Positions 6,234 through 23,790 of a DNA stretch of 23,790 bases are shown piece by piece. The notes beneath the pieces are model-generated. The model ran no database searches. It was not told where the DNA came from and was given only the letters and a program-made list of their open reading frames with translations. The DNA lies in UHGV virus genome UHGV-0045959; one strand, given 5' to 3'. How positions within the stretch are numbered: position 1 is the first letter of the stretch; the number at the start of each line of letters is the position of its first letter. A program made the translations under genes and the position numbers. This DNA is from a virus.

Positions 6234-6315
6234 NNNNNNNNNNNNNNNNNNNNNNNNNNNNNNNNNNNNNNNNNNNNNNNNNNNNNNNNNNNNNNNNNNN
6301 NNNNNNNNNNNNNNN
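6234..6315. other. assembly gap (run of N) inside the A-cos cargo island
   Basis: 82 consecutive N; the stop codon of the 827-aa gene lies 11 nt to its right. Confidence 0.99.
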
Positions 6316-6326
6316 TCTTTTACTGT

Positions 6327-8810
6327 TTAACGAGGGTTTCGCGTATAGGTTTCAACTATGTCTGATGCACGTAATTTACATGTGATCAATTGTTCTCTTA
6401 TAAATATCTCATCGTGTCGTTTATCACTTGTACAAATGGCCGTGATAAAACTGAGGATAGATGCTTTAAAACGTTCAAGATCATTTATGGTCATTATTCG
6501 AGACCCTTCGTTTAGTGTTGCGGCATATTCAGGCATATTAGAGTGATGTATCATTATAGGTGTGGCGGTAGCAGTTTGATCATACATGTTTCTGAACCAT
6601 GCACCCGACCCATTTAACTGATTGCAGTCATGCTTACTTATTCTTTCTGCGGTTGCTCCATTTTTGCATTCAATTACTAGATAATTGTTTTCTCCCATTG
6701 CCCATAAATTGTCAGGTCCTTTACCTGTATCATTTTCTGGCCGTTGGCTACGAAAACCGACCAAATATGCAACTTTTTCGATAGCATCTTCGAAGGGATT
6801 CGATGTGCCCTCGGAGAAAATAAGGTTTTCTATTATTGAATTAGTATGCACAACGACTTGATTGGCCGATTCAAAATTACTTCTGAGATAGGAGCTACAT
6901 TCCCTGGCCTGTTCAAGTGCCGCACCATTAAGTCTATTATATGTTACGCCGATTAGTGGTTTTAATACCCGATAGTTATCGTTTGATGCAGACTGAAGCA
7001 ATATCTGAGCTTCAGATTTGTCATATAAGTTTACATATTCCGCAGCATGTTCTTTTAGATAACCCTTATAAACTTTGTCAGCTGTACTACTATCATTTTT
7101 TAGAGTTAAAGCGGCTTGTTGAAACATATTTCGTGATGCTAAGTCATATGCCAATCTTTTATTTATAGTATGCTGGTCAATCTGCTTATTTTCCAATGTT
7201 AAGCCAGTCAATATACCTTTGCTTTTTGAGACCCAGTCAGAATTGCGTAACAGACAATAATCAAGAGCACCTTTGATTGAATCAATAGTTGTATCCGGCA
7301 GTATCGATACCAATTGCTGTGAAAGTTGAATTTGTGCTTTCGTTGCTGGAGAAAACCTTTCTAAGGAGGAGCCAAGGAAAACAGCGCCATTTAATGCTTT
7401 GCCAAGTAAGATCACTCCGCAGAAGTCGTCGCTTGATCTCACTCCTCGCCCCATTCCTTGTTCAATTTTCTGGATAATTTCATCTTTGGTTTTTTCGCTT
7501 CCAAGCAATAAGCTTTGTGAGACTTTATCTATTAGTCTACGAACGTCAGGAAGTCCATCTATTACTAATAGACGACATGCGGTATTTGGTAAATCAATAC
7601 CATCATATCTATTAACTAGGACTACTAAGCCAACATGTTGTGTCCTTAATTCTTGTACACCTTGATAAATTGTATTTTTATCTAATATTCTGTCTGCAAC
7701 ATCTTGCCAAAATCTAGTTCTGTAATCGGATGGTACAATTACAACAACATTATGTTTGGAGGATATCTCCTTGCACATAGCTTTGATATCTACATCAGAA
7801 AGACTAGGGTTTATAACCTGAGGCATTAGTATCATTCTATCACCAATATCACCAATTGTTTTTGGTGTTATCGGATTAGAGAGTGATTCATCCGTTATTC
7901 CGAAGTGGCTCGCTAGAATGGATTCATCGACAAGAGTAGCTGTCATGAATATTTTTCTTCTTGCGTTTGATAGGCTTGGGATCATTTGGATTGGTATGCA
8001 ATGAGGTGATATCTCTATTTTGGAAGCACTTACAACGCATTTCGATAATATTAGATTGTCTTTTATTAATGGCCATTTGAAACTCAAGTCATCATGGTCT
8101 TTATTTTCTAACAAGATTGTCATTATATCATTTATGCTTTCTTGCCATTTCCAAAATGGAACTCTCACATAAGCATTTCTATCGCCGGATTTTATCTCTA
8201 GTGTTTTTGCACCAGCTTGTGTCATTAGTGAATTTTCAAAAATTCTGAATAATTTATCATAGGCAGGGTTGTTTTTTTGAATGCTAATGGAGAATTGTTC
8301 TTCAATTGAAGAAAGGCAAGCGTGAGCATCGTCAATTATTATAGAACCTATTGGTATTCTTTGTCCATCATCTCCAACGCCAAATGCAGAACGTCCATTA
8401 ACCACTTTGAATATATTTGTAACTAAAATTTCTTTACCTGCAATAAATTTGGGGGACCTCTCATCTTGAGTTACAGGTATACCAAGTTGATTAGCCTCCA
8501 AAACCACTTGCTCAACTAGATAGTTGTCAGGAACAACATATACAGCGGGACCTTCTCCTTCATTTATACAGCTTTTAAGAATGATTAACCCAACTGAAGT
8601 TTTACCGCTTCCGGTATTCATTTTTATTACATTGGTTGGGCTTCTCCTTGCTTCATACCATTTTTCCCAGACCTCTGATTGCACATCTCGAGGGTATTGA
8701 AATTTGGTGTCTTTGCTCGGTAGAGCTGTAAATATATCTCGCGGTGGAATCGCTGTGTCGCTATTTACACTGGGCGAAAGCTTGGTTAAATCAAGGAAAA
8801 AACCAGACAT
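6327..8810 (-). CDS. SF2 helicase fused to a C-terminal PD-(D/E)xK-like nuclease module; candidate single-protein anti-phage defence gene
   Basis: 827-aa ORF with GAGGA Shine-Dalgarno 7 nt upstream of the ATG. Helicase motifs in order: I MNTGSGKTS (aa 64-72), II IIIDDAH (aa 157-163), III MTATL, V YDGIDLP, VI QGMGRGVR (aa 451-458). C-terminal GPD (aa 698-700) followed 14 residues later by VIECK (aa 712-716). Markedly AT-rich compared with flanking phage genes. Confidence 0.8.
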   Translation of the reverse strand: MSGFFLDLTKLSPSVNSDTAIPPRDIFTALPSKDTKFQYPRDVQSEVWEKWYEARRSPTNVIKMNTGSGKTSVGLIILKSCINEGEGPAVYVVPDNYLVEQVVLEANQLGIPVTQDERSPKFIAGKEILVTNIFKVVNGRSAFGVGDDGQRIPIGSIIIDDAHACLSSIEEQFSISIQKNNPAYDKLFRIFENSLMTQAGAKTLEIKSGDRNAYVRVPFWKWQESINDIMTILLENKDHDDLSFKWPLIKDNLILSKCVVSASKIEISPHCIPIQMIPSLSNARRKIFMTATLVDESILASHFGITDESLSNPITPKTIGDIGDRMILMPQVINPSLSDVDIKAMCKEISSKHNVVVIVPSDYRTRFWQDVADRILDKNTIYQGVQELRTQHVGLVVLVNRYDGIDLPNTACRLLVIDGLPDVRRLIDKVSQSLLLGSEKTKDEIIQKIEQGMGRGVRSSDDFCGVILLGKALNGAVFLGSSLERFSPATKAQIQLSQQLVSILPDTTIDSIKGALDYCLLRNSDWVSKSKGILTGLTLENKQIDQHTINKRLAYDLASRNMFQQAALTLKNDSSTADKVYKGYLKEHAAEYVNLYDKSEAQILLQSASNDNYRVLKPLIGVTYNRLNGAALEQARECSSYLRSNFESANQVVVHTNSIIENLIFSEGTSNPFEDAIEKVAYLVGFRSQRPENDTGKGPDNLWAMGENNYLVIECKNGATAERISKHDCNQLNGSGAWFRNMYDQTATATPIMIHHSNMPEYAATLNEGSRIMTINDLERFKASILSFITAICTSDKRHDEIFIREQLITCKLRASDIVETYTRNPR

Positions 8811-20321: not shown

Positions 20322-20925
20322 TTCGCGCCTGCTGCCGACCGGCTCATCACCGCTTGAAGTTGCCGCCGCAAAAGCCTGTGCGGAAATTGAAAAAACGCCG
20401 GTCAGTATTCGTGAACTGTGGAACCCGGATACCTGTCCGGCAAATCTGCTGTCGTGGCTGGCGTGGTCATTTTCGGTTGACCGCTGGGATGATAAGTGGC
20501 CGGAAGCGACAAAACGCGCTGTTATCCGCGATGCGTATTTCATTCACTGCCATAAGGGCACTATAGGCGCAATCCGGCGTGTGGTGGAGCCGCTCGGCTA
20601 TCTGATTGAGGTGAGGGAGTGGTGGCAGCTCAACGAGGAACCGGGGACGTTCCGCATCGTTGTTGGCGTGCTTGAGCAGGGTATTACCGAGGAAATGTAT
20701 CAGGAGCTGGAGCGTCTCGTTGCTGATGCAAAACCTGCAAGCCGCCATCTGACGGGACTGGCTATCAGTTTAAGTACAACCGGCAACATTTTTGCCGGTG
20801 CGGGATGCTATCACGGCGACGCCCTGACGGTTTATCCCTACACCCCGGAGGCCATTATTGTCGGAGGGGATTATTTCCCGGCCTCGGCCATTCATTTAAT
20901 TGATAACCTGAGAGTAAACGCATGA
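20314..20925 (+). CDS. I: baseplate / tail-fibre attachment protein (gpI-like)
   Basis: 203 aa between J and the tail-fibre gene, overlapping both neighbours; somewhat longer than the P2 gpI size I recall. Confidence 0.8.
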   Translation: MSDSRLLPTGSSPLEVAAAKACAEIEKTPVSIRELWNPDTCPANLLSWLAWSFSVDRWDDKWPEATKRAVIRDAYFIHCHKGTIGAIRRVVEPLGYLIEVREWWQLNEEPGTFRIVVGVLEQGITEEMYQELERLVADAKPASRHLTGLAISLSTTGNIFAGAGCYHGDALTVYPYTPEAIIVGGDYFPASAIHLIDNLRVNA

Positions 20926-22217
20926 CAGTGAAATACTACGCCATTCTGACTAATCAGGGCGCAGCACGGCTGGCTAACGCGACGATGCTTGGCAGTAAGC
21001 TGAATCTGACGCAAATGGCCGTTGGTGATGCGAATGGTGTCTTGCCGACACCAGACCCGGCACAGACAAAACTGATTAATCAGAAACGCATTGCACCGCT
21101 GAATCTTCTGAGTGTTGACCCGAACAACCAGAGCCAGATTATTGCGGAGCAAATCATCCCTGAGAACGAGGGCGGATTCTGGATCCGTGAGATTGGGCTT
21201 TATGATGATGAAGGCGTACTCATTGCGGTGGCCAACTGCCCGGAAACGTACAAACCGCAGTTACAGGAAGGCAGTGGTCGTACCCAGACTATCCGCATGA
21301 TTCTGGTTGTCACGAATATCGAAGCCATCACGCTGAAAATCGACCCGTCGGTGGTACTGGCGACCCGTAAATATGTGGATGATGAAGTCCTGGAATTAAG
21401 GCTGTATGTGGATGACCAGATGAGAAACCACATTGCCGCACAGGATCCTCATACCCAGTATGCACAGAAACATAATCCGACATTTACCGGAGAACCAAAA
21501 GCCCCGACGCCTGCCGCAGGAAATAACACCACGCGGATTGCGACCACTGAGTTTGTTCAGGCCGCTATTACCGCTCTGATTAACGGCGCGCCAGCCACGC
21601 TGGACACACTGAAAGAAATTGCCGCAGCCATTAACAATGACCCGAAATTCAGCACCACTATTAACAATGCGCTGTCAGGTAAGCAGCCACTGGATGAGAC
21701 GCTGACTCATTTGAGCGGAAAGGATGTTGCCGGCCTTCTCGCATACCTTGGTTTGGGAGAAACGATAAATAGAGCCTCCAGAGCTATGCAGAAATCGGCT
21801 AATGGATCTGATATTTCTGATGTATCAGCCTTCCGAAATGCGCTCCAGTTAGGGACCGCTGCAACACGAGATGTTGGAGCAGATAATGCCTCGAAGTTAC
21901 TGGATTTAGACAGCTTCAGGTCAATGATGTCAGGTAATGGCTACATCTACATTCCATGCATTGCGACGACAGGAAACCCGGTGAAACTTATGTTGCAGTG
22001 GGGAACGGTGGCAACACAAAAGGGAGCTGATGCTGGATATGCCTTACCATTTGCTTTTCCCTATGCAGGCTTGTTTGCGACCGGAAACCGTGGAACATCT
22101 GGCTACAATGCCGCGATGAATGTGCGTATTGCCAGCAGAACGCATATCAGTATTCAGAACTGGTCGCCATCCGGAGAGGGCACCGAAGATTGTTGTTTTA
22201 TCGCGCTGGGGTATTAA
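20922..22217 (+). CDS. H: tail fibre protein (gpH-like): constant N-terminal part plus currently expressed variable C-terminal tip
   Basis: 431 aa with a conserved phage tail-fibre N-terminus (MTVKYYAILTNQGAARLANA...FWIREIGLYDDEGVLIAVAN); the C-terminal 150 aa lie inside the invertible segment. Shorter than P2 gpH. Confidence 0.88.
   Translation: MTVKYYAILTNQGAARLANATMLGSKLNLTQMAVGDANGVLPTPDPAQTKLINQKRIAPLNLLSVDPNNQSQIIAEQIIPENEGGFWIREIGLYDDEGVLIAVANCPETYKPQLQEGSGRTQTIRMILVVTNIEAITLKIDPSVVLATRKYVDDEVLELRLYVDDQMRNHIAAQDPHTQYAQKHNPTFTGEPKAPTPAAGNNTTRIATTEFVQAAITALINGAPATLDTLKEIAAAINNDPKFSTTINNALSGKQPLDETLTHLSGKDVAGLLAYLGLGETINRASRAMQKSANGSDISDVSAFRNALQLGTAATRDVGADNASKLLDLDSFRSMMSGNGYIYIPCIATTGNPVKLMLQWGTVATQKGADAGYALPFAFPYAGLFATGNRGTSGYNAAMNVRIASRTHISIQNWSPSGEGTEDCCFIALGY
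21736..21761. other. left recombination (crossover) site of the invertible tail-fibre segment (gix/cix/hix-like)
   Basis: 26-bp TTCTCGCATACC-TT-GGTTTGGGAGAA with imperfect dyad symmetry; its reverse complement matches the first 14 bp of the right site and 20 of 26 positions of the hix-type consensus as I recall it. Lies inside H at codons 272-280 (LLAYLGLGE). Confidence 0.7.
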
Positions 22218-22219
22218 GA

Positions 22220-22636
22220 ATGAATAAATTTTATAAAGGCTCTTTCTATCCGAAAGCACTAAAAGAGGTATATATCAGCGCCGGTTCATGGCCTGAAAAT
22301 GGCGTTGATGTTGATGATGAAACAATAGCAATTTACACAGGCGTAGCGCCAGAAGGCAAAACGCTGGGGGCTGATAAAAATGGTAATCCTGCATGGATTG
22401 ATATCCCGCCACTCTCCGCTGAACAACAGATTATTCAGGCTGAACAGAAAAGAACGGTATTGCGTTCAATGGCTGATAAGGAAATAGTCTGGAGACAGGA
22501 TGCTTTTGATGCGGAAATCGCGACGGCAGAAGAAACCGCCGCGTTGTCTGAATGGAAAAAATATCGGGTCTTACTGATGCGCGTTGATACATCAAATCCC
22601 GTCTGGCCTACGCCTCCGGGGGAGCAGGCCAATTGA
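22220..22636 (+). CDS. G: tail fibre assembly chaperone (gpG/Tfa-like) for the expressed fibre tip
   Basis: ORF 22190..22636; ATG at 22220 (MNKFYKGSFYP), 3 nt after the H stop. C-terminus VDTSNPVWPTPPGEQAN is the conserved Tfa C-terminal motif. Confidence 0.8.
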   Translation: MNKFYKGSFYPKALKEVYISAGSWPENGVDVDDETIAIYTGVAPEGKTLGADKNGNPAWIDIPPLSAEQQIIQAEQKRTVLRSMADKEIVWRQDAFDAEIATAEETAALSEWKKYRVLLMRVDTSNPVWPTPPGEQAN

Positions 22637-23228
22637 TATCCGGCGCGGTGCTGGTATCAGTTACCGTCACCGCGTCAATGTAATCCAGCACGACGTTAAG
22701 CCGGGTGGTTTCTGTCTGCGTCAGTTTTCGCCCGGCCTGCAATTTCAGTTGAATCAGATTAATGGAAGCCATTGCAGTATCAATCAGTGACTGTCGCTGT
22801 GTTTCTGCCGCGCCTACTGCGGCGCTATGCTGTGCCTCAGTATCTGTCACCCATTTCTCACCATCCCATTCATCGTATGGCGTTAACGGGGCGACAGTGG
22901 TTGTGTTTTCAGGGTAATCCCCCGGAGTGGTGATTTCTGCTGCCTCACGGGTTTCTGTGTTATAGACTGTCTCACCCCGATGGTCCGGCACGTACTCCCA
23001 CGCGGTCAGGTCGGCTGTGCGGCAAATTGCATAACCAGCCCGCCTTTCCCCGGGGGCATCAGTGCATGAATGTGCAGGAAGGCCAACGCCCACAGCCAGA
23101 TATTCGGTTGACGTGCAAAGGTATTCCCGCGTCTTATTATCGTAGCTGTGGACAACAACCTCTCCTGCAACTGTTGCCAGCCGCGATTCATTCAGCACCG
23201 CTGTAGTCATGGTTTTCTTGCTCATCAT
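22608..23228 (-). CDS. alternative tail fibre assembly chaperone (Tfa') serving the silent fibre tip
   Basis: 206 aa on the minus strand; C-terminus VTDTSTAPDINWPAPPEA parallels the C-terminus of the plus-strand Tfa; its 3' end overlaps that gene by 29 bp. Confidence 0.78.
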   Translation of the reverse strand: MMSKKTMTTAVLNESRLATVAGEVVVHSYDNKTREYLCTSTEYLAVGVGLPAHSCTDAPGERRAGYAICRTADLTAWEYVPDHRGETVYNTETREAAEITTPGDYPENTTTVAPLTPYDEWDGEKWVTDTEAQHSAAVGAAETQRQSLIDTAMASINLIQLKLQAGRKLTQTETTRLNVVLDYIDAVTVTDTSTAPDINWPAPPEA

Positions 23229-23740
23229 GCAGCCCTTACGATGTAGTTAAATGCAATGTTACGTGGCCTTGCATAACCCAGATACTGAATCCCCCAGGCT
23301 CCCACTGGAACGGGGTTCCAGATATGTTCTGTAGGTATACTTTTCGCTCTGAGAATATCTGAATTGGTTTCAGTTTTATCCCATCCCAGCAGGGCAATGT
23401 CGTTTACCGAAAACTGCACCACGCTGTCGGGTGATATATTGGCTTCCTGAACCAGATAAGAGCCTTTTTGCCACGACAACAACGTCCGGCTACTGTCCAC
23501 TCCGCGCCCGTCATCCCAGCCACGAATAAATTCACCACGTAAATCAGGCAATATATTTGTCGGGTAAGCCTTTGCCAGTTCCGGGTATTCTTCAGCAGAA
23601 AATGCCGCCCCGTTGCATTTCAGCCAGCCTGTTGGCAGTGTGGCTGAAGGCCACGGAACAGGCACACCAACGGGTAATACAGAGCCTTCTCCCAAACCAA
23701 CGTTTATGAAAATGCAGAGATAACGGGCAAGTGGCATCAT
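23225..23740 (-). CDS. alternative tail-fibre C-terminal cassette (Sv'-like), silent in this orientation
   Basis: 171-aa ORF containing a phage tail-collar-like motif LPDLRGEFIRGWDDGRG. Residues 14-18 VGLGE are encoded by the right crossover site and match the LGLGE junction in H. Only sequence downstream of the crossover would be fused to H after inversion. Confidence 0.75.
   Translation of the reverse strand: MMPLARYLCIFINVGLGEGSVLPVGVPVPWPSATLPTGWLKCNGAAFSAEEYPELAKAYPTNILPDLRGEFIRGWDDGRGVDSSRTLLSWQKGSYLVQEANISPDSVVQFSVNDIALLGWDKTETNSDILRAKSIPTEHIWNPVPVGAWGIQYLGYARPRNIAFNYIVRAA
23687..23712. other. right recombination (crossover) site of the invertible segment
   Basis: TTCTCCCAAACC-AA-CGTTTATGAAAA; first 14 bp identical to the reverse complement of the left site, central AA dinucleotide matching. 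Confidence 0.7.
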
Positions 23741-23767
23741 CTCCGGTTTTTATTCAGGGGGATGCTC

Positions 23768-23790
23768 ATGCTTATTGGCTATGTACGCGT
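23768..23790 (+). CDS. serine DNA invertase (Gin/Cin/Hin/Pin family), 5' fragment truncated by window end
   Basis: ATG at 23768 followed by codons for MLIGYVRV, the characteristic N-terminus of Gin/Cin/Hin-type invertases (catalytic Ser expected at the next codon); directly adjacent to the right crossover site. Confidence 0.65.

Follow-up and report, generated by a model that had tools for sequence, protein, structure and literature searches.

Evidence for a Din-family DNA inversion switch that exchanges the tail-fibre tip of a P2-like Escherichia coli prophage

The 26-bp sequence at positions 21736-21761, which lies inside the tail-fibre gene H, is very probably (we estimate about 93%) the distal crossover site of a serine-invertase switch of the Din family (Hin/Gin/Cin/Pin) carried by a P2-like E. 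coli prophage. Inversion between this site and an inverted partner further downstream exchanges the gp53-like tip of the fibre for a Collar-domain tip without loss of reading frame. A preliminary description had recognised this frame-preserving tip swap at a GLGE junction, and both its observation and its main interpretation are supported as correct. The element is a further fibre switch of the Gin/Cin/Pin family, and its mechanism is a textbook one that introduces no new principle.

The window (the whole stretch of DNA analysed, 23,790 nucleotides) takes in the left-hand two thirds of an E. coli prophage of P2-like (Peduovirus) type, from the integrase through gene A and the head and baseplate genes to H. 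It is 97% identical to P2-like phage records, and many complete E. coli genomes contain prophages that match it at 99.99-100% identity. As assembled, H (20922..22217, plus strand) is an ORF of 431 amino acids that combines a constant N-terminal part with a gp53-like tip. Pfam assigned residues 1-150 to the N-terminal domain PF12571 (Phage_tail_fib) and residues 356-431 to PF21882 (Gp53-like_C), and the N-terminal part shares 42% identity with H of phage P2. The first variable tip, the gp53-like C-terminal domain now fused to H, occupies 21762..22217 on the plus strand and is delimited by its Pfam domain and by a mosaic boundary directly after GLGE, from which point the related loci diverge. 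It is followed by its tail-fibre assembly chaperone, which resembles Mu U and P2 G (22220..22636, plus strand; Pfam Caudo_TAP, E = 1e-31) and is labelled 'tail fiber assembly protein' in RefSeq. Facing these genes on the minus strand are a second assembly chaperone resembling Mu U' (22608..23228, with the RefSeq start at 23210; Caudo_TAP, E = 3e-31) and a second variable tip (23225..23698), a now silent Collar cassette that becomes residues 277-433 of the alternative fibre, H', once inverted. This second tip contains the Phage Tail Collar domain PF07484 (E = 2e-14) and matches the collar region of T4 gp37 (PDB 2XGF, E = 5e-15). A search against NCBIfam returned no family-specific match for H, H' or the chaperones and sub-threshold matches only for the invertase.

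The distal site, read whole as TTCTCGCATACCTTGGTTTGGGAGAA, is composed of the half-sites TTCTCGCATACC and GGTTTGGGAGAA on either side of a TT core (21748-21749), and codes for ..LLAYLGLGE in H, where the glutamate is residue 280. The proximal site at 23687-23712 (TTCTCCCAAACC AA CGTTTATGAAAA, with the AA core at 23699-23700; read whole as TTCTCCCAAACCAACGTTTATGAAAA) begins 1951 bp beyond the start of the distal site, has the inverted orientation, and on the minus strand reads ..FINVGLGEGSV.. inside the ORF 23225..23740. The two sites agree at 21 of 26 positions, with full identity over the 14 nt made up of the core plus the inner half-site (TTGGTTTGGGAGAA). The earlier placement of the left site within H, coding for LLAYLGLGE, was thus borne out by the ORF and its translation, and the same holds for the claim that the right site encodes VGLGE on the opposite strand with the identical block TTGGTTTGGGAGAA in both. 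The core dinucleotides, TT and AA, are complementary between the sites and become identical once one of them is read inverted. With complementary cores only inversion permits religation, which is a criterion of the Din family. An invertase-site consensus (TTCTCNNAAACCNNGGTTTNNGAGAA, at most 3 mismatches) matched just these two places in the 23.8-kb window and found 0 matches in 100 shuffles of it. Extra crossover sites of the kind found in Min- or shufflon-like multi-inversion systems were also sought across the window, and none was present beyond the two.

Such inverted repeats might be nothing but chance similarity, or a substrate of general RecA recombination outside any site-specific system. 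The restriction of perfect identity to 14 nt would suit this origin, as would the finding that 1 of 100 shuffles contained two matches to the 14-mer at up to 2 mismatches. The full 26-bp consensus, however, picks out two places only and none in the shuffles, and each site has an internal dyad symmetry, although an imperfect one (10/12 positions between the half-sites of the distal site and 8/12 in the proximal site). Moreover, the sites, their spacing, the codon phase and the adjacent invertase recur together across dozens of loci as well as in Mu, P1 and e14, and 14 bp is far too short for efficient RecA-dependent recombination. Given the consensus search, the classical-site layout, the related loci and the comparison with e14, we consider a chance or RecA origin of the repeats refuted and its residual probability negligible.

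Inversion between the central TT and AA places the cassette of the opposite strand in frame behind codons 1-276 of H, and in silico inversion in the right register gave an uninterrupted H' of 433 amino acids with neither a frameshift nor a stop at the junction (...LLAYLGLGE|GSVLPVGVPVPW...), in which the Collar-domain tip replaces the gp53-like tip at the C-terminus. The invertible segment between the core dinucleotides, delimited by in silico inversion and by the two orientations found in nature, extends over 21750..23698. Inverting 21748..23700, 21749..23699 or 21750..23698 is equivalent, and any inversion symmetric about the cores keeps the frame. The interval 21749..23700, which the preliminary description had put forward for this check, is one base out of register and, taken literally, leads to a frameshift and a 311-aa product; this is an off-by-one slip in a coordinate, not biology, and it does not refute the fusion of the constant part of H to the other tip, a prediction supported by both the inversion and natural genomes. 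By analogy with Gin and Hin, strand exchange would take place at the central TT (21748-21749), inside codon 276, and sequence alone leaves the whole 14-nt block possible. The constant part had been described as amino acids 1-280, which is right at the protein level because residues 277-280 (GLGE) are coded identically by both cassettes; the point of strand exchange itself falls inside codon 276.

Both states of the element exist in nature, since the predicted H' and the predicted flipped DNA were found at 100% in complete genomes. Strains EJN001 and 720632 carry a RefSeq coding sequence (WP_069067655.1, 433 aa) that is byte-identical to the predicted H', and the predicted flipped DNA of 2391 bp was recovered over its full length at 100% identity in EJN001, EBJ001 and 11899A_LBHALD and at 99.9% in 720632. 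The same 2391 bp in the window orientation is present at 100% in strain M217 and many other complete E. coli genomes. An IMG/VR locus (L013) carries the same element in the flipped orientation with an intact invertase. Where the invertase is intact, genomes of either orientation are common; the counts of 4 versus 75 are confounded by cassette diversity and serve only to show this. H is better annotated as a phase-variable gene with two C-termini, of 431 and 433 amino acids.

We surveyed 79 IMG/VR loci with a related invertase. In 29 of them, the window included, the reading frame ahead of the distal site is open for 100 codons or more. All 29 share the same codon phase at the site and keep at least 100 codons open, whether in the orientation found or inverted in silico, and the core pair is TT/AA in 28 of them. 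The P2-like prophages of EPEC E2348/69 (Goldberg et al. 2014, PMC4272514) likewise carry an invertase and inverted repeats, as in the related loci here, and PCR verified that orientations coexist there and that the inversions yield alternative C-termini of one fibre protein (PMC4272514). One of those loci has three repeats and four variants (PMC4272514), in contrast to the two sites of the window.

The window ends after the first 23 nt of the serine DNA invertase gene (23768..23790, plus strand; codons MLIGYVRV), so we describe the full gene from near-identical loci. It has 197 codons with Pfam Resolvase and HTH_7 domains, is 88% identical to e14 PinE, 80% to P1 Cin and 78% to Mu Gin, and matches Gin crystal structures (3UJ3 at E = 7e-95). 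Nucleotides 19-90 of the invertase gene in a related locus (L003) correspond at 58 of 72 positions to the enhancer annotated in P1 and at 54 of 72 to Mu. Based on this homology, read beyond the window, a putative Fis-dependent enhancer lies in the 5' part of the invertase gene. The mechanism and the catalytic Ser9 of Gin (PMC3575834), as well as the 26-bp hix sites and the Fis enhancer (PMC3798978), have been described, and by homology with Gin and Hin we infer the chemistry of inversion here. Invertase dimers would bind both inverted 26-bp sites and, together with Fis on the enhancer that the invertase gene contains at its 5' end, assemble into an invertasome. Ser9 would then make cuts staggered by 2 nt in both duplexes at the central TT/AA, after which one half would turn by 180 degrees and the ends would be religated. 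Each flip would exchange the last ~155 codons of the fibre (gp53-like or Collar tip) along with the matching assembly chaperone, and H codons 1-276 and the late promoter would stay in place. The exchange of the tip is in frame because the distal site sits at a fixed codon phase of H and both cassettes begin with the GLGE codons. A flip would be expected to change host range, making this another case of host-range bet-hedging in P2-like prophages, and the activity of the switch in this particular genome is likewise judged indirectly.

Among known systems the closest is the P segment of e14 (PinE, E. coli K-12 MG1655). Its proximal site is identical to ours in 26 of 26 bases, and its distal site shares the inner half and core, TTGGTTTGGGAGAA, and differs in the outer half at 3 of 12 positions. 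Kirigo et al. 2025 (PMC12529663) likewise give TTGGTTTGGGAGAA as the e14 repeat. The proteins correspond as well, with identities of 88% between PinE and the invertase, 76% between TfaE and the chaperone of the second tip (U'), and 57% between StfE and the Collar tip. Gene order is the same in e14 (stfP-tfaP / tfaE-stfE), namely constant part, tip, tfa, tfa', tip' and invertase, and e14 carries the same leader outside its proximal site (MPFACYFFIFINVGLGE). The two differ in that e14 is a lambdoid remnant with a short StfP N-terminus, whereas the constant part here is a P2-type H N-terminus of 276 residues and belongs to a complete late operon, and in that the gp53-like tip has no counterpart in e14.

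The classical phage switches share the same plan. The G segment of Mu (Gin; S-U / U'-S') has 26-bp gix sites with the same half-site pattern, and its distal site lies in S at the same codon phase, reading NLGLQE versus YLGLGE here. Gene order is again the same, the distance from the proximal site to the invertase ATG is 54 nt in Mu and 55 nt here, Gin is 78% identical, and the motif TGGCATGAT occurs at the same place. Mu differs in its core (TC/GA versus TT/AA), in its segment of ~3 kb with longer variable parts, and in belonging to Muvirus rather than Peduovirus. In the C segment of P1 (Cin), the cix layout and the TT/AA core are as here, and the crossover falls at the same codon phase of S, which encodes YLGLRE there. 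Cin is 80% identical, and its enhancer (cin nt 19-90) matches the stretch in the related locus at 58 of 72 bases as given above. On the other hand, cin is located on the other side of the segment with its 3' end abutting cixL, the segment measures 4.2 kb, and the constant part of the fibre is unrelated to P2 H. Phage P2 itself has a homologous N-terminal part of H and, at the mosaic boundary, a fossil of the crossover motif (IEYLGLQETVNRA, YLGLQETVNRA), but only a single fixed tip and a single chaperone (G), without an invertase and with fun(Z) in the corresponding place.

Outside the invertible segment and next to the proximal site lies a fixed stub (23701..23740, minus strand), which provides 13-14 leader codons (MMPLARYLCIFINV) for whichever cassette faces it. 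In the window orientation these codons open the 171-aa ORF 23225..23740, and in the flipped state they precede the gp53-like tip instead, in an ORF of 169 aa. RefSeq annotates both stub ORFs, the 171-aa one as 'phage tail protein' (WP_001333405.1). Aligning 41 distinct versions, Mu included, of the spacer that separates the proximal site from the start of the invertase gene revealed an invariant motif, TGGCATCAT (23732..23740, plus strand), as the conserved DNA pattern TGGCAT[C/G]AT, which is invariant even at the third position of a 'Pro' codon and has a 1-nt indel just to its right. The in-frame ATG of the stub, which is conserved, is read from the strand complementary to this motif. The motif may be a DNA-level signal, and we regard it as a candidate -10 region of the invertase promoter.

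The preliminary description held that the leading 13 codons of ORF 23225..23740 are probably not translated as such. In favour of this, the leader residues change non-synonymously among the 41 distinct spacers, with a stop or no start in a few loci, and what is conserved is the DNA motif; against it stands the conservation of the in-frame ATG. That the leader is no real N-terminus is plausible but not proven. The converse proposal, that the 171-aa ORF is an independent gene which produces a free tip protein from its own ATG, instead of or besides serving as a silent cassette, draws on the RefSeq annotation, on an in-frame ATG that nearly all related loci, and Mu, retain at a constant distance beyond the proximal site, on a GGAG just upstream of the ATG, and on e14 stub-plus-cassette chimeras such as StfE2 that are reported to be functional (PMC12529663). 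We judge it unlikely nonetheless, as the GGAG is a mere 0-3 nt from the ATGs and absent in Mu, the conserved TGGCAT[C/G]AT lies where the invertase promoter is expected, the leader residues vary as described, and in the curated Mu record the corresponding ORF figures as no more than the C-terminal portion of S'. There were also 0 promoter-like sites in the 50 nt upstream within the window. A promoter and terminator scan of 22100-23790 gave 1 promoter-like match versus 2.6 expected, which favours neither view. In annotation terms, the 171-aa and 169-aa ORFs beside the invertase, labelled 'phage tail protein' or 'gp53-like', are better described as detached alternative tips whose leader is fortuitous or regulatory.

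In the lineage that the window matches at 99.99-100% identity, the invertase gene is interrupted. The IS66-family element ISEc22 splits it after codon 11 (nt 33; loci L001 and L002), with the target duplication CAACAAAT. An intact gene would read MLIGYVRVSTNDQNT, and a split one TCAACAAAT followed by GTAAGCGTCGTC, the ISEc22 end. The ORF that remains has RLPTN in place of RVSTN and has lost the catalytic Ser9, and the insertion also splits the enhancer-homologous stretch. ISEc22 occupies this position in M217 and at least 59 other complete genomes of the window orientation, and every complete genome with a match of about 100% to the whole window is one of these. By raw genome counts, which include clonal kin, 60 genomes of the IS lineage have the window orientation versus 2 that are flipped (EJN001 and EBJ001, possibly a single event), and in a third flipped genome (11899A_LBHALD) the IS is rearranged. 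M217 (window orientation) and EJN001 (flipped) show 0 differences in 3104 nt including the IS (L001, L002), yet they differ in orientation; therefore, at least one inversion took place after the insertion. A related invertase acting in trans, for example e14 PinE, is the simplest explanation of this flip, because every IS-lineage genome among the matches listed contains at least two invertase-like places, the proximal site equals that of e14, and PinE and PinQ are known to invert the e14 P segment in trans (PMC12529663). The presence of both orientations despite the disrupted invertase fits cross-talk between prophage invertases, and it mildly extends the known picture to a clinically important E. 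coli lineage whose own invertase has been knocked out by an IS.

These observations also bear on whether the two sites are by now non-recombining relics, with H fixed to its gp53-like tip and the Collar cassette a dead spare, a question of present-day activity and not of the nature of the element. The loss of Ser9, which Gin-type catalysis requires (PMC3575834), the IS after codon 11 in every complete genome at ~100% to the window, the splitting of the P1-like enhancer stretch and the window orientation in 60 of 62-63 IS genomes all point in this direction. So does the decay of the prophage in the lineage, where gene A carries an IS21 and deletion derivatives are also seen, and P2 H offers a precedent, keeping its fossil YLGLQETVNRA without any invertase. 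EJN001 and EBJ001, however, are flipped despite the same IS, both sites are preserved, with the proximal one equal to the e14 site recombined by PinE and PinQ, and a second invertase-like locus is present in the genomes. Furthermore, the insertion point lies 10 nt beyond the end of the window, and it is in the relatives of the window that the IS is seen. We therefore take complete fossilisation to be a serious possibility, though one we are inclined to doubt. In our reading, the switch in the IS lineage is probably crippled and nearly frozen in the window orientation, with rare flips via an invertase in trans.

A bolder proposal concerns the ST167-like lineage, in which the cassette of the decaying prophage would still be flipped by a heterologous Pin-type invertase of another cryptic prophage, without an intact cis enhancer, and the tip ORFs initiated in the stub (ATG at 23737/23740) would be kept as host-serving proteins, for instance by blocking phage adsorption. 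A block of phage adsorption has been reported for e14 StfE2 (PMC12529663). We give this combination little credence, and if it were true the tip ORFs would be more than silent spares. Within the lineage, genome CFS3273 matches the window at ~100% and has the IS-bearing invertase, while its gene A is uninterrupted, as in the window.

In all complete genomes that are ~100% identical to the window, we found that ISEc22, an IS66-family element, sits after nucleotide 33 of the invertase gene, at a point that corresponds to 10 nt past the window end at 23790. The element occupies positions 5403-7856 of L001 and 5903-8356 of L002, two near-identical loci; the transposase of this copy is frameshifted, and the target duplication in the invertase gene is CAACAAAT. 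The insertion removes the catalytic Ser9 of the invertase and splits the enhancer-homologous stretch. Despite ISEc22 in the invertase gene, the invertible segment is flipped in 2-3 of ~63 such genomes.

In this lineage the prophage is decaying through IS activity, as L010 (strain 51008369SK1) and L009 (11899A_LBHALD) show. The late genes between ISEc12 (IS21) in gene A and the IS66 element in the invertase gene are all gone in some lineage members, and in 11899A_LBHALD the prophage halves lie ~1 Mb apart, with the break at IS66.

Between the proximal crossover site and the invertase start, the motif TGGCAT[C/G]AT (window 23732-23740, + strand) is invariant in 41 distinct spacers, including that of phage Mu, while the sequence around it varies among them. 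This motif may serve the invertase promoter as an extended -10-like element. Its complement supplies the stub ORF (23225..23740, - strand) with a conserved in-frame ATG.

Phage P2 gene H (L012, residues ~375-390), which is without an invertase, retains IEYLGLQETVNRA where its conserved part gives way to the variable one, and this sequence is a crossover-site fossil. At the start of two IMG/VR contigs (positions 1-38 of both L059 and L067), 38 nt reproduce the proximal site and its outer flank exactly, in reverse complement; these contig starts may reflect, through the assembly graph, that the sequenced population held both orientations. Within the invertible segment, the two tail-fibre chaperone genes converge and share their last 29 nt (3' ends; window 22608-22636), whereas the equivalent genes of phage Mu are 28 nt apart.

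A variable cargo hotspot seems to lie between replication gene A and portal gene Q. In the window it carries an 827-aa DEAD/ResIII helicase (6327-8810, - strand), a full-length match (1054 bits) to PDC-S28, which PADLOC lists as a candidate defence protein, and at the position of this gene strain 600055 has a PP2C phosphatase and two Ser/Thr kinases. By BLAST, ~82 nt that lie between gene A and the helicase gene (window 6234-6315) are unaligned to M217 (L008), which has ~20 nt in their place.
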